From Minisyncoccota bacterium (GTDB taxonomy: Bacteria > Patescibacteriota > Minisyncoccia > Phycocordibacterales > UBA9973): a stretch of DNA of 64,000 nt. The position numbers and the translations under genes are program-made. A model generated the notes under the pieces. It was not told where the DNA came from. It made no database searches and was given only the letters and a program-made list of their open reading frames with translations. The stretch covers positions 233,087 through 297,086 of the forward strand of contig JBAZQY010000001.1 of NCBI GenBank assembly GCA_041663185.1. Direction: 5' to 3'. Positions 50,707 through 58,325 of this stretch are shown here, in pieces. Each line of letters starts with the position of its first letter. Position 1 is the first letter of the stretch.

Positions 50707-51264
50707 ATGAAAAAGAGAAATTCCATTTTAATACTGATTCTTTCTTTAATCACAACCCTATTGGTTCTGGGGGCCCTTGGTTTTTTCTTGAGAATTATTA
50801 AAAATAAAAATCAACATATATCTGTTTCCATTGCAACACTCGAAAAAAAATTGAAAGATAAGGAAGAAATAGTAACATTTGCTGAAAAGTTATCAGAAAT
50901 CGAATCGATCCGAGATACTATTAGTAGTCGTTTTATTGATCCGAATAAGATAGATACATTTGTAAATTATTTAGAAGATCTTGATTCGGATATTGGCTCA
51001 GATATTGCAGTGAAGAATATTGAAATATCACCCAAGGTTAAAAATTCAATTGCCTTTAAGATTTTAATTACTGGAACTTTCCAAGAGGTTATGGAGACAA
51101 TCTCACTACTAGAGAATATTCCTTATGAAGTCGATGTTACTCAGGTTTATTTAAATAAAGATCTAGCCCAAGTAATTGATACTCAAGATGAGAAACAGAC
51201 TCCTGTAATTAAAGTTTCAACTTGGCAAGCGGATATCGCTTTTAATATTTTGAGCTCCAATTAA
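50707..51264 (+). CDS. PilO-like pilus assembly protein
   Basis: N-terminal TM + coiled-coil; position after pilMN. Confidence 0.4.
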   Translation: MKKRNSILILILSLITTLLVLGALGFFLRIIKNKNQHISVSIATLEKKLKDKEEIVTFAEKLSEIESIRDTISSRFIDPNKIDTFVNYLEDLDSDIGSDIAVKNIEISPKVKNSIAFKILITGTFQEVMETISLLENIPYEVDVTQVYLNKDLAQVIDTQDEKQTPVIKVSTWQADIAFNILSSN

Positions 51265-51269
51265 TTTTT

Positions 51270-51590
51270 ATGAAAATATCTTTTAAAAAAACTGAAAATC
51301 AAATAAAAAAATTATTCTCTCCTAAAAAATCAAACCCGCATACTGATTGGCGGATTCTGCTTGATATATTCTTTCTTGTTGTCGTAGTTTTGATTTTATT
51401 TAGTTTCTATTTACTATACACCATTAAAAATCAACAAGTATTTCAGATTGAACCTAAATCAGACGAAACACCAACGATGATTAATGAAAAACTTTTAGAA
51501 AAAATAAACAATTCATTTGAACAGAAATCAATCAAAGCCAGAGAAATAAAAGATGGATCAAAATCATATAAAGATCCAAGTATAAATTAA
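51270..51590 (+). CDS. small single-TM protein (possible pilus assembly accessory)
   Basis: 106-aa ORF with a TM helix; operon position. Confidence 0.3.
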   Translation: MKISFKKTENQIKKLFSPKKSNPHTDWRILLDIFFLVVVVLILFSFYLLYTIKNQQVFQIEPKSDETPTMINEKLLEKINNSFEQKSIKAREIKDGSKSYKDPSIN

Positions 51591-51637
51591 ATCTTGAAAT
51601 TAACTTTAAATATGGTAGTATAAACGACAGGTTAATT

Positions 51638-51710
51638 GCGCGATTAGCTCAGTTGGTAGAGCAACCCGTTTACACCGGGAAGGTCGGGGGTTCGAGTCCC
51701 TCATCGCGCA
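51638..51710 (+). tRNA. tRNA-Val (anticodon UAC)
   Basis: acceptor GCGCGAT/ATCGCGC, D-arm GCTCAGTTGGTAGAGC, anticodon loop TTTACAC, T-arm GGGGGTTCGAGTCCCTC. Confidence 0.85.
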
Positions 51711-51817
51711 CAGCGATAAATACAAAGCAAATTTATTTGCTTTGTATGAGGGCGAGAAAGCCGGAGCGCGTCGGCGTGAGGCAGGGTCGTGCGAATTTTC
51801 AGTAGAAAATTACGCCT

Positions 51818-51840
51818 GACCGAGTCCCTCATCGCGCACA
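51818..51840 (+). repeat. 21-bp direct repeat of the tRNA-Val 3' end
   Basis: cgagtccctcatcgcgcacag identical to 51690-51713. Confidence 0.8.
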
Positions 51841-51848
51841 GTTATTTT

Positions 51849-51920
51849 GCCCTCGTAGTTAAATGGATATAACTGCGGACTTCTAAGCCGCTATTGTAGG
51901 TTCGATTCCTGCCGAGGGCA
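51849..51920 (+). tRNA. tRNA-Arg (anticodon UCU)
   Basis: acceptor GCCCTCG/CGAGGGC, D-arm GTTAAATGGATATAAC, anticodon loop CTTCTAA, T-arm GTAGGTTCGATTCCTGC. Confidence 0.8.
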
Positions 51921-52067
51921 CAAAAGAGTGAATTTAAAAAATAATAACTGCTTATTATTTTTTCTCTTTTGTGAGACAGAGCGATGTTTTGCTAGTAGGC
52001 AAAACCGCGAGTCGGGGTCGCGACCGAGATGAGTGGCGACGAGCCGAGAGTTGTGGCCAATTAATTT

Positions 52068-52856
52068 ATGAAAATAAAAATTTTATACGAAGATAAAAAT
52101 ATTTTAGTTATCGATAAACCAGCGGGTATTTCAGTGCATGGAGATGGTAAAACCAAAGAAGAAACAATTTCTGATTGGGTGCTTTCAAATTACCCATCAA
52201 TAAAAAATGTCGGAGAGCCAATTAAATTAAAAATTAAGAATGAGGAATTAAGAATTAATCGGCCGGGAATTGTCCACCGCTTAGATAAAGAAACTTCGGG
52301 AATTTTGATTATTGCTAAAAATCAAAAAACTTTTCTTTTTTTGAAGGAGCAATTTATGAACCATAAAGTTAAAAAAGTTTACCGAGCATTTGTTTATGGT
52401 TATGTTTCTGATCCCAAGGCTTCACTTCTTACCGGTGGAAGGGGAGTAATAAATGTTCCAATAGGTCGCTCATCAAAAGATATCAGGGCATATACTGCTG
52501 GGCGTGGAGCGAGAGCCCCACTTCGTGAGGCTGTGACAGAATATATTATTTTAAATAAGTTTACTGATTCGAGCGATGAAAATGAAAAGAAAAAAATTGA
52601 ACATCAGTATTCTTATATTGAAGCATATCCAAAAACTGGGCGAACTCATCAGATTAGAGTTCATATGCGTTATATTAATCACCCAGTAGTTTCTGACCCG
52701 ATTTATCGTGGAATAAAAGAGAAATCTTTAGGCATGAAGCGCCTCGCGCTTCATGCCTATTCGGCAACTTTTACTCTTCCAAATGGAAAAGTGAAAACTG
52801 TAGAATCTCCACTTCCGGCTGATTTCAAAAAGGTGTTAAAAACATTTTTGAATTAG
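52068..52856 (+). CDS. RluA-family pseudouridine synthase
   Basis: catalytic HRLDKETSGILIIAKN. Confidence 0.85.
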   Translation: MKIKILYEDKNILVIDKPAGISVHGDGKTKEETISDWVLSNYPSIKNVGEPIKLKIKNEELRINRPGIVHRLDKETSGILIIAKNQKTFLFLKEQFMNHKVKKVYRAFVYGYVSDPKASLLTGGRGVINVPIGRSSKDIRAYTAGRGARAPLREAVTEYIILNKFTDSSDENEKKKIEHQYSYIEAYPKTGRTHQIRVHMRYINHPVVSDPIYRGIKEKSLGMKRLALHAYSATFTLPNGKVKTVESPLPADFKKVLKTFLN

Positions 52857-52927
52857 GTTCTAGTGGCTAGTTTCTAGGTTCTAGCAAAATGCTAATGAAT
52901 TCATATACAGGAACAATTTTTTTCATA

Positions 52928-52957
52928 TTGACAAAATAGGGTTGTTTGTGATATAAT
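52928..52957 (+). promoter_or_regulatory. sigma70-like promoter of the DGR target gene
   Basis: ttgaca - 18 nt - tataat. Confidence 0.5.
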
Positions 52958-53026
52958 ACAAGAAGGTAAAGAGTCTGCCTTAAAAATGGCTCAAATATTT
53001 AATTTTGTACTTTTAAAAAATTTAAA

Positions 53027-53665
53027 ATGAGAACAAAAACTCTCGAGCAGAACACGGCGCAAGATTTCGCTGGACTGCAAATCGACCAGTTGAGCAAATT
53101 GCGCAACGGTAACATCACCTTTGAACAGGTGAAATGGTTTAACAACCTTACATTCGAGCAACGCGAAGCGTTGATGGGCAAGCAACCCGAAATGGTGCTT
53201 TTCCTGAAACTGCTTTCCGGAGCTGAAACGCTGATGCTTGATGCCCTCGATGGCACAGAGACATTGGCAACCGCTAAGGAAGTTTTTCCATCGGGTATTG
53301 ATGGCGACTTCAAAAACTGGGGCACCAACAAGTCCAGTATCGCTACCAAAGAACAGGCGGTAGAGGTACACGAACTAGTAAAGGATGGAACCTTTGCACA
53401 GATGTTTGGTTCTCTCGGGACCGATCTGGATAAGTGGTGTTTAACACAAGCCCAGATAAAGAACTTTTGTAAAAAATATCCCAACTGGTTACGCAAAGAC
53501 GGATATGTGACTTTCTTCCTATTTAAGGTTGAAGATCACTTCTTCGTTGCTCGCGTGCGCGTGCGCTCTGGTGGCTTGGGCGTCGACGTCGGCGGGTTCG
53601 GGGGCGGCGTCGTGTGGGGTTCTGACGTCCTTCCTCGTGTGGTAGTCCCGCAACAGGTTGCTTAG
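53027..53665 (+). CDS. DGR variable (target) protein; VR encoded at the C-terminus
   Basis: 212 aa; about 50% GC against about 33% in the flanks; last 39 codons form the VR. Confidence 0.8.
   Translation: MRTKTLEQNTAQDFAGLQIDQLSKLRNGNITFEQVKWFNNLTFEQREALMGKQPEMVLFLKLLSGAETLMLDALDGTETLATAKEVFPSGIDGDFKNWGTNKSSIATKEQAVEVHELVKDGTFAQMFGSLGTDLDKWCLTQAQIKNFCKKYPNWLRKDGYVTFFLFKVEDHFFVARVRVRSGGLGVDVGGFGGGVVWGSDVLPRVVVPQQVA
53536..53654 (+). repeat. DGR variable repeat (VR)
   Basis: 119 bp aligned to TR; 21 mismatches, all at TR adenines. Confidence 0.85.
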
Positions 53666-53687
53666 ACACTTAAATAATTTGATTCTT

Positions 53688-53721
53688 AATCCCTTTGATA
53701 CTTTGTCAGAGGGATTTTTTT
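53688..53721 (+). terminator. hairpin + T-run after the target gene
   Basis: aatccctttgatactttgtcagagggattttttt. Confidence 0.5.
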
Positions 53722-53963
53722 ATGTATAATTAAAATACAAGCGTGCGATACTTCATGGTTACGGCTACGAAGTCACTTTTGTGGAAAACCATTATTGAGA
53801 ATTTTGTTGGTTACGGCTTACAAAAGAGTGGTAATGTTTTTTCAAATTAAAAAATAATTTAGTTGGTGTAGTTTGCTTGTGAATTTTGATATTCCAAATG
53901 ATATACAGCACGATTCCTAATGGAAACATGTTTGAATCGGCAGTGAAATAGATGGCACACTAC

Positions 53964-54082
53964 ACAATTCTTCGTTGCTAACGTGAACGTGAACTCTGAT
54001 GGCTTGAACGTCAACGTCAACAGGTTCGAGAACGACAACGTGTGGAATTCTGACGTCCTTCCTCGTGTGGTAGTCCCGCAAC
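53964..54082 (+). repeat. DGR template repeat (TR), non-coding, rich in AAC triplets
   Basis: aacgtgaacgtgaac ... gagaacgacaac; identical 3' 40 nt (IMH-like) with the VR. Confidence 0.85.
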
Positions 54083-54100
54083 TAAATATTTCTCCCCTGA

Positions 54101-54442
54101 TTAATTCTTGGGAGTTTTTATTTCAAGTCCCTTTTTCCAACCACCTAACATTCGCCCAATTTCATCAAGTTGTGTTGACAGTGTAATGTATTTTTCGGTT
54201 GGTAAACATTTATTTTCCCAAGAAATCTGAAGGAAAAATTTTACTCCATCTAATTTTGAAATTGAGATAGTTAATCGATTGATTTTATTTTCTCCTGAAA
54301 GATATTGAGAAACAAAAATATTTTCCAAAAGTTCTAAAAAATATCCTTCAATTTTTTCTCCAATAGTGCGACGATACATCTTAGGGAAGTCAATAAAAAT
54401 CTTAAACCAGATAGAATAAGCACCTTTTGCTTTTATGAGCAC
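54101..54442 (-). CDS. avd: Avd-like accessory variability determinant (four-helix-bundle)
   Basis: 113 aa from a GTG start; C-terminal LDEIGRMLGGWKK matches the Avd/IVS family; lies between TR and RT on the opposite strand. Confidence 0.65.
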   Translation of the reverse strand: MLIKAKGAYSIWFKIFIDFPKMYRRTIGEKIEGYFLELLENIFVSQYLSGENKINRLTISISKLDGVKFFLQISWENKCLPTEKYITLSTQLDEIGRMLGGWKKGLEIKTPKN

Positions 54443-54453
54443 CTGAGGTGCTC

Positions 54454-54463
54454 GGGGGGGGGG
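54454..54463. repeat. G10 homopolymer tract (C10 on the avd strand) next to the 17-bp hairpin gagcacctgaggtgctc
   Basis: ten consecutive G at 54454-54463 in the avd/RT divergent spacer. Confidence 0.9.
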
Positions 54464-54493
54464 TAATTAATGAATTCATATAATTAAAATAAA

Positions 54494-55513
54494 ATGAAAA
54501 AATTTGATAATAAATATAATGATATCATATCTATAGAAAACTTACTTTTAGCTTGGCAGGAATTTCTAAAAGGCAAAAGAAAAAAGAAAGATGTTTGTGA
54601 ATTTCAATTAAAACTTATGGACAATATTTTTGACTTACATAATGATTTAAAAAACAAAACATACAAACACGGTGAATATATTGCTTTTAAAATTAATGAC
54701 CCCAAACCAAGAGATATTCATAAAGCAAGTGTCAGAGATAGATTACTTCATCATGCTATATACAGAATACTTTATCCATATTTTGATCAAAAATTCATTT
54801 ATGACTCGTATTCTTGTAGATTGGGTAAGGGGACTCATAAAGCCATAAACAGATTCAGAGATTTTTCTCGAATTGTCTCAAAAAACAGTACAAGGTCTTG
54901 CCTTGTACTAAAATGCGACATCAGAAAGTTCTTTGCTAGTATTAATCACCAAGTATTGAAAAACATTTTAGTAAAATACATGGATGATAAAGATACTCTT
55001 TGGCTTATTAACCAAATTGTAGACAGTTTTCAAACCACTTACAACTTTACCAAACTAACGCTATCGCGTTCCTTTGGTAAAGGACTTCCTTTGGGCAACT
55101 TAACTAGTCAACTGCTTGTGAATATTTATATGAATGAATTTGACCAATTTGTAAAAAACAAACTAAAGATAAAATACTATATCCGCTACGCGGATGATTT
55201 TGTCATTTTGCAAAATGACAAAATGAAACTTCTTGATAATTTAGATCGAATGAAAGAATTTTTAAGTAATGAATTAAAATTAAATATGCATCCAGATAAA
55301 ATATTTATTAAAACACTTTATTCTGGTATTGATTTCTTGGGATGGGTAAGTTTCCCAAACCATAGAGTTTTAAGAACATCAACCAAAAAGAGGATGTTTA
55401 GAAATTTGGAGAAGTGTAATTATAAAAAAGAAAGTGTAAATTCTTATTTGGGGATGTTGTCGCATGGAGATGGGTATAAGCTAGAAAATTTGATAAAAAT
55501 TTGCTTAAAATAG
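54494..55513 (+). CDS. DGR-type reverse transcriptase
   Basis: RT motifs [30 protein letters not shown] (DGR-style LGxxxSQ), RYADDFVIL (YADD). Confidence 0.9.
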
Positions 55514-55536
55514 CTATATATGATAAAGTAAAACCC

Positions 55537-55935
55537 ATGGAAATAACGAAAAAACAATTTACTCCAGTAGCTCAAGAGGATCGTAAAAAGCTTAATTTTA
55601 AGGCTGGGGATACGGTGCGTGTTTGGAGTAAGATTTTAGAAAAAGGAAAAACTCGTTTACAGGCTTTCGAAGGGCTTGTTCTTTCTCGTAAACATGGGAC
55701 AGAGTCAGGAGCAACATTTACAATTAGAAAAGTGGCCTCAGGTGTGGGGGTTGAGCGTATTTTCCCATTATATTCTCCCAACATTGATAAAATTGAAGTT
55801 ATTAGAAAATCAAAAACTCGCCGAAGTAAGCTCTATTACATCAGAACAAAAGCAGTTAAGGAAGTTAAAAAGAGATTAAAGAGTGTGACTCTTTCAAAAG
55901 AAGAACAAGAGGGAGTTGTAAAAACAGAAGAATAA
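55537..55935 (+). CDS. rplS: 50S ribosomal protein L19
   Basis: [10 protein letters not shown] ... [21 protein letters not shown]; start placed at the Met after the RT stop. Confidence 0.85.
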
Positions 55936-55945
55936 GAAATTATAA

Positions 55946-55989
55946 TAAAAAATCCACCCAAAAGAATAGACTCAGGGTGGATTTTTTTA
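55946..55989 (+). terminator. terminator
   Basis: aaaaaatccaccc ... gggtggattttttt. Confidence 0.75.
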
Positions 55990-55997
55990 TATTAATC

Positions 55998-56025
55998 AAT
56001 TGGTAGACGCTACATCCTTGAGGTG
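55998..56025 (+). pseudogene. truncated tRNA-Leu-like fragment (D-loop to anticodon loop)
   Basis: aattggtagacgctacatccttgaggtg aligns to tRNA-Leu positions about 14-41. Confidence 0.45.
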
Positions 56026-56038
56026 ATATAATATAGAC

Positions 56039-56722
56039 ATGAGCAAGAGGGGACCACAACCAAAAAGGATTATAAATGAAAAATGGAATGCAAACTTAGC
56101 TTATGCAATTGGTCTACTCGCTACTGATGGTTGTCTGGCTAATGATGGGCTGTTAATTGATTTAACCTCAAAAGATAAAGAACAGCTATTAAATTTTTCT
56201 AAATGTGTTGGTGTAAATTTTAAGATAGGTAATAAGTGGAACTTAAAAGGAGATGAATGCCTAAGAATTCAATTTAAAAATAGAATTTTCTACGATTTTC
56301 TTTTGTCGATTGGGCTAACTTCTAAAAAATCATTAACTATGGGGAAATTAAAAGTGCCAGATAAATATTTTTTTGATTTTTTACGAGGGTGTTTTGATGG
56401 AGATGGTTGTTTTTATTCTTATTGGGATCCTAGATGGCGTTCGAGCCATATGTTTTATATTGAATTTGTTTCTGCCAGCAAAGAGCATATTGATTGGTTG
56501 CAACAAGAATTAAAAAATAACATTAAAGTAAATGGACATATCACTGTCGCTTTTAAAAAGAATAAATATTATCAACTAAAATATGCAAAAAAGGAAGCGA
56601 TGGAAATAATAAAGAAAATGTATTATAATCCCAATGTTGTTTGTTTATCTAGAAAAAAGATTAAAATCCAAAAAGCCCTAGAGATAGAGAAGAGACAACA
56701 GAAAAAATATTTAACAAAATAA
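56039..56722 (+). CDS. LAGLIDADG homing endonuclease (two-motif, monomeric type)
   Basis: AYAIGLLATDGCL and FLRGCFDGDGCF. Confidence 0.85.
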   Translation: MSKRGPQPKRIINEKWNANLAYAIGLLATDGCLANDGLLIDLTSKDKEQLLNFSKCVGVNFKIGNKWNLKGDECLRIQFKNRIFYDFLLSIGLTSKKSLTMGKLKVPDKYFFDFLRGCFDGDGCFYSYWDPRWRSSHMFYIEFVSASKEHIDWLQQELKNNIKVNGHITVAFKKNKYYQLKYAKKEAMEIIKKMYYNPNVVCLSRKKIKIQKALEIEKRQQKKYLTK

Positions 56723-56723
56723 T

Positions 56724-56809
56724 GCGCGGGTGGCGAAATCTGGTCAGACGCACTACCTTGAGGTGGTAGCGGGAGCAATCCTATGGAGGTTCGAATCCTC
56801 TCTCGCGCA
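56724..56809 (+). tRNA. tRNA-Leu (anticodon GAG), type II
   Basis: acceptor GCGCGGG/CTCGCGC, anticodon stem CTACC/GGTAG with loop TTGAGGT, long variable arm, T-arm GGAGGTTCGAATCCTCT; starts 2 nt after the HE stop. Confidence 0.8.
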
Positions 56810-56965
56810 CAAATAAAGTTTGCAATTTGTATAATTAGTGGTAATGTGAAGAAAATACCTCACATATAGTCATAGTCAAAAGTCATTAATTATTTGATGT
56901 TTTTTGACTATGACTGCTGTGGTGGTGGTCCTCTAGTACATTTAAATAATTAAATATTTAAAATT

Positions 56966-57655
56966 ATGACAGATGTAAACCGCTTGTTGTTCTGCGATGC
57001 TCGTGGACCAATGAACCAGATCAACGATGTTTTAGCTGGAAAAAATGGAAAACTCTGGTTAAAAGGAATTAACTCTTATTTGAGGCAGGGAGCAATAAAA
57101 GCTTTTGGTTGGGAAACCTATGGAGCTTTTGATTTAAGGTTCTTTGAATCACCCGATGTTTTAATGGCCGCTATTAAATTTAAATTAAAGCCGCGGGATG
57201 TTTTTTGGGGTAATGAGCATGACATTGAAGTGCTCATAAACCAAATTAACTATCCAGTTCTACAAGAATCGGGGGTAGAATTTGTTTCTTTAAAGATAGA
57301 GGAGTTGGGCTTTGAAAAAGGAGCTCGCCTATCTGAGATTGAAGATTGTCTTCCAGGACTAGGATTAGAAATATGCCGACAATCTGATGCTCCTGGTTTA
57401 TTCCTAACCGATAAAGATTCCCTTGATAAAATTAGAAAAATAGAAAGAGGGGTATTTATTAGTAAACCATTTTTTCTACATTTAAGAGGAAAAAATGATC
57501 CCGAGAGGCCAATTTTGTTTGAATTGACTTTTAGTAATGTTGTAGAGGTTGGGCTCCATAGTTTTTGGAGTGAAGCCACCGAAGGAGTTGAAGAAAAATA
57601 TCCATCAGATATATTTTTTACTTCATCGCAAAAGATTGTATTACGTATTAAATAG
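56966..57655 (+). CDS. hypothetical protein
   Basis: 229-aa ORF; preceded by a 15-bp IR hairpin tagtcatagtcaaaa/ttttgactatgacta. Confidence 0.45.
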   Translation: MTDVNRLLFCDARGPMNQINDVLAGKNGKLWLKGINSYLRQGAIKAFGWETYGAFDLRFFESPDVLMAAIKFKLKPRDVFWGNEHDIEVLINQINYPVLQESGVEFVSLKIEELGFEKGARLSEIEDCLPGLGLEICRQSDAPGLFLTDKDSLDKIRKIERGVFISKPFFLHLRGKNDPERPILFELTFSNVVEVGLHSFWSEATEGVEEKYPSDIFFTSSQKIVLRIK

Positions 57656-57752
57656 TGGAAAATAAGGGAGGGTTGTTTAAAAAACATCACTCCCTTTTTT
57701 AATTCTTTTTAAATTTCTAAAATAATAATGATTTTTATAGTATAATCATATT

Positions 57753-58325
57753 ATGCTTAATATTTTACTTTATGTGCTTGAGGTTTTTTTGATAGTTGTC
57801 TTTTTGGGGATTGTTGTTTTATTTGTATTTTGGTCAATTGGGAATTTTAGAAATAAAGTTCCATTCGTCACAGCGTCAAATGCTGTTTTGAAAGATATTG
57901 CAAAAGCACTTATGATTACAGATGACAGTGTAGTATATGATTTAGGGTGTGGAGATGGAAGAGTTTTGGTTTATCTTTCTCGTTTGAATCCAAAAGCAAA
58001 ATATATTGGAATTGAAAACAATATTTTACCACTTTTATTATCTAGGATTGAGTCATTTTGGTCTAATAAAAAAACGGGGAATAAAATTGAAATCATTAAT
58101 GGTGATTTTTTTAAGCAAGATTTATCCAAAGCCACTCATATTTTTACCTATCTATATCCAAATATAATGGATGAATTGCTTTCAAAATTTGAAAAGGAAC
58201 TCAAGCCCGGAACCAAATTAGTCTCACTGTCTTTTAAATTTTCAGGCAAAAATTATAGTAATGAGGTTGACCTTATGAGAAGTAAATATAAACTTGGGCG
58301 TAAGTTGTATGTTTATCAATTTTAA
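57753..58325 (+). CDS. class I SAM-dependent methyltransferase with N-terminal TM
   Basis: motif I VYDLGCGDGRVL. Confidence 0.65.
   Translation: MLNILLYVLEVFLIVVFLGIVVLFVFWSIGNFRNKVPFVTASNAVLKDIAKALMITDDSVVYDLGCGDGRVLVYLSRLNPKAKYIGIENNILPLLLSRIESFWSNKKTGNKIEIINGDFFKQDLSKATHIFTYLYPNIMDELLSKFEKELKPGTKLVSLSFKFSGKNYSNEVDLMRSKYKLGRKLYVYQF

Follow-up and report, generated by a model that had tools for sequence, protein, structure and literature searches.

A chromosomal and probably complete diversity-generating retroelement (Patescibacteria type) in a Candidatus Paceibacterota genome, with a putatively structured TR RNA and a C-run in avd

Layout of the locus, the TR/VR repeat pair and the target

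The 64-kb stretch of DNA analysed here (the window) belongs to a Candidatus Paceibacterota MAG. The locus at 52928-55513 most probably represents (at a rough probability of 80%) a complete chromosomal diversity-generating retroelement (DGR) of the type found in Patescibacteria (CPR), ordered target/VR, TR, reversed avd, and reverse transcriptase (RT). The following features were located:

52928..52957, plus strand: promoter-like site of the target gene (TTGACA, 18 nt, TG-TATAAT), matching the consensus at 12 of 12 positions
53027..53665, plus strand: target gene, 212 aa, helical towards the N-terminus, then a putative, divergent C-type-lectin-like C-terminal domain (residues ~58-212)
53537..53654, plus strand: VR, inside CDS 53027-53665, with observed substitutions at 53539-53619 and an IMH-like block (53620-53654) equal to TR
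53688..53716, plus strand: hairpin of 13 bp with a T-run behind it, 33 nt past VR, -16 kcal/mol
53703..53730, plus strand: promoter-like site of the TR RNA (TTGTCA, 16 nt, TATAAT, with TG in front), 11/12 match
53737..53965, plus strand: predicted structured 5' domain of the TR RNA, seven helices
53965..54082, plus strand: TR, non-coding and AAC-rich, in the target-avd intergenic region
54092..54123, plus strand: hairpin (stem 54092-96 with 54110-14) and U-run just past TR, -10.5 kcal/mol, z -2.8
54101..54442, minus strand: avd, 113 aa as called from a GTG start, Pfam PF22296 (bAvd)
54437-54453, then 54454-54463: 7-bp hairpin followed by a G10 run (C10 in the avd sense strand)
54494..55513, plus strand: DGR reverse transcriptase, 339 aa, Pfam RVT_1

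The 212-aa target, the 113-aa minus-strand ORF and the 339-aa RT lie where an earlier note on this DNA had placed them. Together with the TR/VR pair, that note had read them as the full hallmark set of a DGR diversifying the C-terminus of the 212-aa protein, and the TR/VR pair, a DGR-type RT and Avd were indeed all recovered.

VR and TR align without gaps at a fixed offset of 428 nt over a repeat of 118 nt, in agreement with the earlier placing of VR at the 3' end of CDS 53027-53665 and of TR 428 nt downstream; the 3' end of VR sits 11 nt before the end of the CDS. The pair had been bounded at 119 bp (53536-53654 and 53964-54082) with 21 mismatches, all at TR adenines. The adenine specificity stands, whereas the repeat is bounded here at 118 nt, starting at 53537/53965, and the count has to be corrected to 22, with a TR adenine at 22/22 (23 mismatches, again all at TR adenines, if the pair is extended to 53536/53964). 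With 28 A's among the 118 nt of TR, the hypergeometric probability of all 22 mismatches landing on an A is about 9e-19. Between 53966 and 54047, 22 of 24 A's are substituted in VR, those at 53966 and 54014 being retained, and the four A's of the 3' block are all unchanged. This IMH-like block is identical in the two copies as had been described, over 35 nt (53620-53654 = 54048-54082) and not 40, and because of this identity no difference between IMH and IMH* is visible in the window. In 10 of 17 relatives, the TR reads CCGAAA(C/A) at the place of VR CCGCAAC. The mutable part of TR is 95% identical to that of the related locus L013, and the VRs of the two differ; the 3' 35 nt show 60-66% identity to L013, yet the window's own VR equals its TR there, a pattern that we read as concerted evolution of VR and the TR 3' block in the window's lineage.

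TR is rich in AAC, as already remarked, with eight AAC codons and one AAT. Its substituted A's fall at codon position 1 or 2, the exception being the first, at position 3 of codon 171. The 14 diversifiable codons (171, 176, 178, 180, 182, 185, 187, 189, 190, 192-195 and 198) contain 24 adenines and give the element a potential of about 4e13 protein variants, a stop codon being impossible at any of them. The hypervariable columns of the target family alignment are exactly the A-containing TR codons. A search with TR as query, its A's treated as N, found no further VR-like copy or second target in the 64-kb window.

The sequence TTGACA...TGTGATATAAT of the candidate promoter at 52928..52957 is also kept upstream of the target gene in relatives. 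No recognisable domain, predicted signal peptide or membrane segment was found in the 212 aa of the target. Its variable domain may adopt a very divergent C-type-lectin-like fold, to which the variable surface would belong; the closest systems for this putative fold are the C-type-lectin-fold DGR variable proteins Mtd and TvpA (2y3c). The hairpin at 53688-53716 is a possible terminator of the target gene and a possible counterpart of the inverted repeat that follows IMH, and by analogy with BPP-1 it may have a role in homing. For such downstream inverted repeats, Wu et al. 2018 (PMC5758913) give a frequency of just 34% among DGRs. In addition, a 15-nt palindrome-containing repeat, TAATGAATTCATATA, is present ahead of the target promoter and again between avd and the RT gene; it was considered as a shared operator and rejected, being conserved in 0/9 relatives, where the longest shared words are 7-9 nt.

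Reverse transcriptase, Avd and related elements

The RT ORF carries the two motifs reported for it earlier, LGNLTSQ and YADD. Its best PDB relative is 8ub7_A (E 1e-38, residues 3-310), which is the RT in the RT-Avd-RNA complex of the Bordetella phage DGR, whereas group II and retron-type RTs reach 1e-15 or worse, leaving the DGR RT ahead by 23 orders of magnitude in E-value. The residues of the template/dNTP site described by Handa et al. are kept (K28, F65, R73, I75, the D of LKCD, L200-G201...Q206 and YADD). The RT was classed by PDB comparison because the NCBIfam search returned only group II, Drt and retron matches, far under their cutoffs, and no DGR-RT model. By similarity to PDB chains, a place with DGR RTs rather than with group II or retron RTs is supported, as had been proposed.

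The minus-strand ORF had been assigned to the Avd family, and the profile search bears this out: it scores 47.4 bits against Pfam PF22296 bAvd (gathering score 40) and 54.5 bits against NCBIfam DivGenRetAVD, under the cutoff of 80. PF22296 is found in all 318 Avd homologs.

The arrangement target(+)-TR(+)-avd(-)-RT(+), with adenine-only TR/VR mismatches, recurs at 9/12 genome loci and at further metagenome loci, and the cassette with Avd is conserved across many lineages. TR-(avd)-RT is architecture B3, to which Wu et al. 2018 (PMC5758913) assign 90% of their CPR set; the reversed avd is the norm among them and no oddity, and the element is of an already known kind, common in Patescibacteria. 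Like other CPR DGRs (B3, Wu et al. 2018, PMC5758913; clade 2, Roux et al. 2021, PMC8144416), it is cellular and chromosomal, its target is devoid of a recognisable domain, signal peptide or membrane segment, and it adjoins a ribosomal protein gene, rplS; its core design is identical to theirs. In the CPR DGR literature, searched without the UVR-class supplements, we found no description of a TR RNA whose 5' domain has these seven helices, of the C-run and hairpin at the 5' end of avd, or of the 212-aa target family.

The BPP-1 DGR (mtd-avd-TR-brt) shares with this element the adenine-specific TR-to-VR differences, the Avd partner, a VR at the target C-terminus, a homologous RT (E 1e-38) with conserved IGxxxSQ, YxDD and template-site residues, and a hairpin after VR. 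Moreover, the duplex at the TR 5' edge and the stem-loop just past TR in the window RNA resemble those of the BPP-1 cryo-EM RNP. The BPP-1 DGR is phage-borne, whereas the present one is chromosomal, with an inverted avd downstream of TR and IMH equal to IMH*, and it lacks a long spacer that continues into the RT gene. Its structured RNA lies mostly 5' of TR, the TR-edge duplex being formed by two upstream segments, and the Rfam RT-10 motif of BPP-1 has no match in the element.

The TR RNA

TR lies within a predicted RNA of about 390 nt that has a putative promoter of its own. Seven helices with strong covariation were predicted 5' of TR, and a hairpin and U-run 3' of it. The sequence TGTATAAT is kept at the position of the promoter in 17 related loci. 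The helices of the 5' domain, predicted with RNAalifold from 17 loci, are all on the plus strand:

53737-45/53774-82: P1
53750-59/53764-73: P1a
53783-96/53830-44: P2
53802-11/53816-25: P2a
53866-77/53954-65: P3, abutting the 5' edge of TR
53881-84/53891-94: P4
53908-09/53940-41: P5

When the 3' hairpin is included, 92.8% of cells are paired, compared with 45-47% when partners are slid, and compensatory changes occur in 49 of 63 pairs (20-26 with slid partners); the observed values were reached by 0/500 shuffles. The RNA also carries two GGTTACGGCT loops. With respect to a priming site, an invariant AGUUG lies just 5' of P3 and is complementary to the end of the window TR, CAACU, but not to that of relatives whose TR ends in AAAAU; we do not advance it as the site.

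The stem of the 3' hairpin covaries among relatives (e.g. CTCCGCA/TGCGGAG and TCTCTC/GAGAGA), and the avd stop codon sits in the loop of 54092-54114. This hairpin is a candidate terminator of the TR RNA and/or a candidate Avd-binding stem-loop. For the pyrimidine tract at 54088-54097, the distant G-run at 54454-54463 was considered as a pairing partner and discarded, as covariation shows local pairing with GGGAG at 54110-54114. Searches with Rfam 15 returned no family other than tRNAs at E <=0.001 in 51000-58000 and none in the DGR, where the RT-associated motifs RT-1 to RT-19, among them the RT-10 motif known from the BPP-1 DGR, gave no covariance-model match.

These features suggest the following mechanism. 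The target gene would be transcribed from its own consensus promoter up to the hairpin 53688-53716, and a separate RNA of about 390 nt would start near 53737, comprising the structured 5' domain, the 118-nt TR and the 3' hairpin with its U-run. RT and Avd would copy TR from its 3' end, misincorporating opposite adenines, and cDNA synthesis would probably halt at P3. The cDNA would then replace VR by way of the identical 35-nt 3' block and 5' homology, and rewriting could reach the 14 codons of the target.

The avd C-run and the activity of the element

At the 5' coding end of the window avd, the C10 run puts the conserved upstream ATG (54479-54477) out of frame. The GTG from which the gene is called lies inside the hairpin 54437-54453, and the run also falls in the 51-bp divergent avd/RT control region. 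Run and hairpin recur in relatives, with run lengths of 9-12 and compensatory stem changes; in one Avd homolog, the site is occupied by a (CA)n repeat. The upstream ATG is in frame at 4/11 loci, in-frame and out-of-frame states being mixed among relatives. In the syntenic ortholog, C10, C11 and C12 alleles are found at a DNA identity of 98.8-99.8%, only C12 being in frame. An assembly artefact is unlikely, G10 recurring in three other records, one each from NCBI, ENA and Logan, and C11 of the syntenic ortholog in two assemblies from different assemblers. Run length is reproducible within one population (G10 in L044, L045 and L046, G12 in L013 and L014).

Relatives give the clearest indications of activity. 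L049/L050 and L047 differ at 10 sites, all of them in VR at TR adenines, with 0 differences in about 1400 nt outside VR. Within the syntenic ortholog (L056 and L057), 8 sites differ in 3342 nt, of which 7 are in VR at TR adenines, and VR diversification was also seen among P0004, P0005 and P0006. Since otherwise identical DNA differs only in VR, and only at TR-A positions, the clade appears to be active. For the genome of the window, no VR variants were found among the records covering VR, L044 and L045 carrying the VR of the window.

Homopolymer contingency loci are a form of slipped-strand phase variation. The C9-C12 run in the 5' coding end of avd resembles them in showing all three frames among near-identical alleles, and differs in its uniform length among assembly records of the same population. 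The C-run and hairpin suggest a phase-variable or slippage-dependent Avd. Alternatively, the frame of the run could be of no consequence, if translation began at an internal GTG or if transcriptional slippage or ribosomal frameshifting took place. We tentatively advance a broader reading, with the odds somewhat against it: that mutagenesis in this clade may be gated by the hypermutable avd C-run (through slippage in DNA, in RNA or on the ribosome) and the conserved hairpin, so that full-length Avd would be produced or not and the diversifier would itself be a stochastic on/off (contingency) locus, and that TR may be part of a separate ncRNA of about 390 nt, extensively structured and of no described family, whose 5' domain replaces the phage-type downstream spacer.

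A DGR by descent that has been switched off or is decaying in this genome, with the C10 run parting avd from its normal start and the VR frozen as the last product of past activity, is in our view rather unlikely. It would account for the out-of-frame upstream ATG, for the identity of VR in all records covering it, and for a VR in which nearly all mutable A's are already replaced with a G-biased substitution spectrum; moreover, about 20% of close Avd homologs are also called as short forms. It fits poorly with an intact RT ORF that retains its catalytic residues, with a TR RNA that keeps its promoter and all covarying helices, and with an in-frame GTG start, the Avd from which spans positions 14-106 of the 107 in Pfam bAvd. 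In the syntenic ortholog, the consensus runs C10 and C11 are both out of frame, and since fresh VR changes separate these strains, an out-of-frame run does not preclude activity. Finally, an ordinary duplication or gene-conversion tract beside an unrelated RT from a group II intron, a retron or a defence system, for which the far sub-cutoff NCBIfam matches could be cited, is effectively refuted by mismatches confined to adenines (P ~ 9e-19), by the lead of the DGR RT in the PDB comparison and by a cassette with Avd conserved across many lineages, and Rfam gave neither a group II intron RNA nor another family in the DGR.

Taken as a DGR of the CPR type, the element alone changes little, because the class is already abundant in CPR bacteria and this is one more well-documented example. 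The control of DGR activity is left open by Roux et al. 2021 (PMC8144416), and the locus and its relatives form a clean comparative data set on this control, as well as on the RNA architecture for cis-primed reverse transcription with an inverted avd and no spacer into the RT gene. Concrete and testable entry points to both questions are offered by the covariation-supported 5' domain and by the C-run of avd with its hairpin. In addition, a small, soluble-looking target that lacks an export signal and could exist in about 4e13 variants bears on whether the targets of CPR DGRs work intracellularly.

Classification and genomic setting of the element

The evidence supports the interpretation of the earlier note and identifies the element as a diversity-generating retroelement (DGR) of a known kind, the B3 type of CPR (Patescibacteria), defined by the architecture TR-(avd reversed)-RT (Wu et al. 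2018, PMC5758913). Its parts are as follows:

53027-53665, plus strand, target gene
53537-53654, variable repeat (VR) in the target gene
53965-54082, non-coding template repeat (TR)
54101-54442, minus strand, avd
54494-55513, plus strand, reverse transcriptase (RT)

The 339-aa RT belongs to Pfam RVT_1. Among solved structures it comes closest to 8ub7_A (328 aa), the entry for the DGR RT-Avd ribonucleoprotein of a Bordetella phage (E 1e-38 over residues 3-310), whereas group II and retron-type RTs reached E 1e-15 or worse in the same PDB comparison, which bears out the proposal of a DGR-type enzyme with LGNLTSQ and YADD motifs. The template/dNTP-site and active-site residues named by Handa et al. 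are kept in the alignment: K29, F66, R74 and I76 of bRT correspond to K28, F65, R73 and I75 of the window RT, D138 to the D of LKCD, I181-G182...Q187 to L200-G201...Q206 (LGNLTSQ), and D215-D216 to YADD. An NCBIfam search with the RT returned sub-threshold group II, Drt and retron matches only, and no DGR-RT model. The minus-strand ORF is an Avd, as had been suggested (Pfam bAvd score 47.4, gathering score 40), and has 318 homologs, with PF22296 on every one listed.

Genome and metagenome scans for members of the target family yielded 39 loci. The layout target(+)-TR(+)-avd(-)-RT(+) is present in every locus having an RT, and TR/VR mismatches in these relatives involve essentially A's only. 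Since this layout agrees with that of published CPR DGRs, the inverted avd is normal for the group. CPR DGRs fall into clade 2 of Roux et al. (2021, PMC8144416), whose targets are typically without a recognisable transmembrane or other conserved domain. The 212-aa target matched nothing in Pfam, NCBIfam and PDB sequence searches, and contains no hydrophobic segment (Kyte-Doolittle 19-residue mean, maximum 1.48). In its full-length AF2 model (pLDDT 84.8), about 55 helical N-terminal residues precede a compact C-terminal domain; modelled alone (residues 58-212), this domain reaches pLDDT 93.6 and pTM 0.90.

A Candidatus Paceibacterota MAG encodes a "hypothetical protein" with 100% identity to the target. 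Compared with GCA_041664805.1 (JBAYKC010000003.1), the window shows a single base difference over 4.8 kb (52001-56800). This sole difference, also relative to ERZ27249449, lies in rplS (position 55766, C against G). The cassette occupies a dense stretch of the chromosome, with a pseudouridine synthase gene (52068-52856) on one side and rplS on the other, and no phage hallmarks were found around it. Downstream of rplS, a 227-aa ORF (56039-56722) with a faint LAGLIDADG_3 match ends 2 bases before a tRNA-Leu(gag) (56724-56810). Two exact copies of a 15-nt sequence, TAATGAATTCATATA, which includes the palindrome ATGAATTCAT, are found ahead of the target promoter (52893-52907) and in the avd/RT intergenic region (54468-54482); nine relatives show no conservation of this repeat, so it is probably fortuitous or lineage-specific.

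The target gene differs from the remaining cassette in composition and evolution. Its non-VR part (53027-53536) has a GC content of 45.7% and its product (residues 1-170) is 95% identical to that of the related locus L013, while the values are 30% and 75% for avd and 28.6% and 59% for the RT (whole window, 34.1% GC). Either the cassette is modular in evolution, or the target/TR module is swapped between lineages. In L013 (2475-3635; target 87% identical), the cassette lies in another neighbourhood, directly downstream of a Transposase_mut gene, a sequence context that hints at mobility. Some target homologs carry an alternative N-terminal module; for many homologs, neither TR nor RT lies within 3.5-5 kb. 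Ten loci (L002, L011, L018, L019, L022, L029, L030, L036, L039 and L042) are without TR, avd or RT in 3.5-5 kb per side, and their targets may be orphans, served in trans, or remnants. In L008 (2802-3332), L009 (7542-8234), L027 (2354-3055) and L031 (4111-4830), an additional target-family gene is present in tandem or downstream of the RT, and its VR pairs with the same TR with A-only mismatches.

Adenine-directed diversification

VR and TR align without gaps over 118 nt at a fixed offset of 428 nt. The repeat described in the earlier note is real, with 22 mismatches (23 if the pair 53536/53964 is included) instead of 21, and every one of the 22 falls on a TR adenine, as it had claimed (P ~ 9e-19 by chance, TR having 28 A's among its 118 nt). 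The identical 3' block, put at 40 nt in that note, measures 35 nt (53620-53654 and 54048-54082), and its four A's are unchanged in VR; within 53966-54047, 22 of the 24 A's are substituted. Except for the first, which is the third base of codon 171, the substituted A's all fall on the first or second base of a codon. The 24 A's occupy 14 diversifiable codons (codon 198 being included by hand from the VR/TR alignment), allowing about 4e13 protein variants, and a stop codon cannot be reached from any of them. No further VR-like copy exists in the 64-kb window. The substitutions (53539-53619) comprise 17 G, 4 C and 1 T, a G share above that of the pooled relatives (43% G, 32% T, 25% C; binomial p ~ 0.001), and include three consecutive changes of AAC to CGC and four of AAC or AAT to GGC or GGT.

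Among relatives, 53 aligned target homologs are conserved outside the columns that correspond to TR codons with an A (FFVAxVxVxSxGLxVxVxRFxxxxVWxAxxSHRxVVPQLTA). Eight contigs of close relatives encode an identical Avd. Within this set, 10 positions separate L049 and L050 from L047, L051 and L054; each lies in VR at a TR-A site, while the TRs are identical and ~1400 nt outside VR show no difference. Likewise, two strains carrying the syntenic ortholog (pseudouridine synthase-target-avd-RT-L19), L056 and L057, show 8 differences in 3342 nt, 7 of them in VR; these seven are all at TR-A sites, as placed on TR by hand. In the window lineage, the 35-nt block is only 60-66% identical to L013 yet identical between VR and TR, therefore TR-to-VR transfer postdates that divergence. 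No VR heterogeneity was seen for the window genome, for which the only other VR-covering records, L044 and L045, may share source data.

A structured TR RNA

An alignment of 17 loci, covering the VR-TR spacer, TR and a short stretch beyond it, revealed a conserved 5' domain of about 230 nt (53737-53965) with seven helices, two of whose hairpins share a GGTTACGGCT loop. It is preceded by an extended -10 element, TGTATAAT (53723-53730), conserved across the aligned loci and part of an 11/12 promoter-like match (53703-53730). Covariation is strong, the hairpin 3' of TR included: 92.8% of cells form a standard pair (45-47% when partners are slid by 1-3 columns), 49 of 63 pairs show compensatory changes (20-26 when slid), and the covariation score is 0.59 (0.12-0.16 when slid), values reached by none of 500 shuffles. 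No Rfam 15 family matched the region. Just 3' of TR, the aligned loci also share a hairpin (54092-96 with 54110-14) and, after it, a U-run (within 54092-54123).

We infer that a discrete transcript of ~390 nt, started from its own TGTATAAT promoter, carries TR. The 3' hairpin and U-run would end transcription ahead of an antisense run through avd, and the hairpin may also be the "Avd-binding stem-loop just downstream of TR". The conserved 12-bp helix P3 (53866-77 with 53954-65), whose 3' strand ends exactly at the start of TR/VR homology, may equal in function the duplex that stops cDNA synthesis in the Bordetella phage BPP-1, although the latter joins upstream and downstream segments and both strands of P3 are upstream.

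A length-variable C-run at the start of avd

Between the divergent avd and RT starts, a hairpin (54437-54453) holding the called avd GTG start (54442) is followed by a G10 run (54454-54463), which on the avd strand is C10 just 5' of the GTG (54463-54454). The hairpin, with compensatory stem changes, and a G9-G12 run recur in relatives, where the C9-C12 lengths cover all three frames. In 10 of 11 loci an ATG precedes the run by 11-19 nt (28 nt in L012); it is in frame with avd in four loci (e.g. L007, MQNFTPPPRAPAVLVK, and L047, MSKNSVPPPRAPSVLVK) and out of frame in seven, the class of L027 being assigned by hand. The window (ATG 54479-54477) is among the latter, and reading MNSLITPPRAPQVLIKAK from this ATG would require C9 or C12. 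Of the 120 closest Avd homologs, 90 start at the upstream ATG (70 with a PP-PPPP run and 20 run-less with a similar extension), 22 are short forms like the window Avd, and one has a PHTHTHTHT repeat at the run site. As most homologs start there, the extension is a normal part of the protein and the run is coding.

Run length varies among syntenic orthologs with 98.8-99.8% identical DNA: C10 in L057 and L024, C11 in L056 and L058 (assembled by different assemblers), and C12, the only in-frame allele, in L055. The homologs P0138 and P0142 have 100% identical cores, with a short N-terminus in the former and a long one in the latter. Length is reproducible within a population, with G10 in three further records of the window organism and G12 in both L013 and L014. 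The L004 contig stops (4462) right at the avd hairpin, at the expected start of the G-run, which suggests that assemblers break at this tract.

The pattern may reflect DNA-level phase variation, transcriptional or ribosomal slippage aided by the hairpin, or use of the internal GTG start. VR changed between L056 and L057, two strains with out-of-frame consensus runs. Our literature search found no paper tying DGRs to homopolymer switching.

Two features may be of specialist interest: the 5' domain of the TR RNA with its covarying helices, solid in structure and inferred in function, and the length-variable avd C-run, whose pattern is suggestive of a possible DGR switch.
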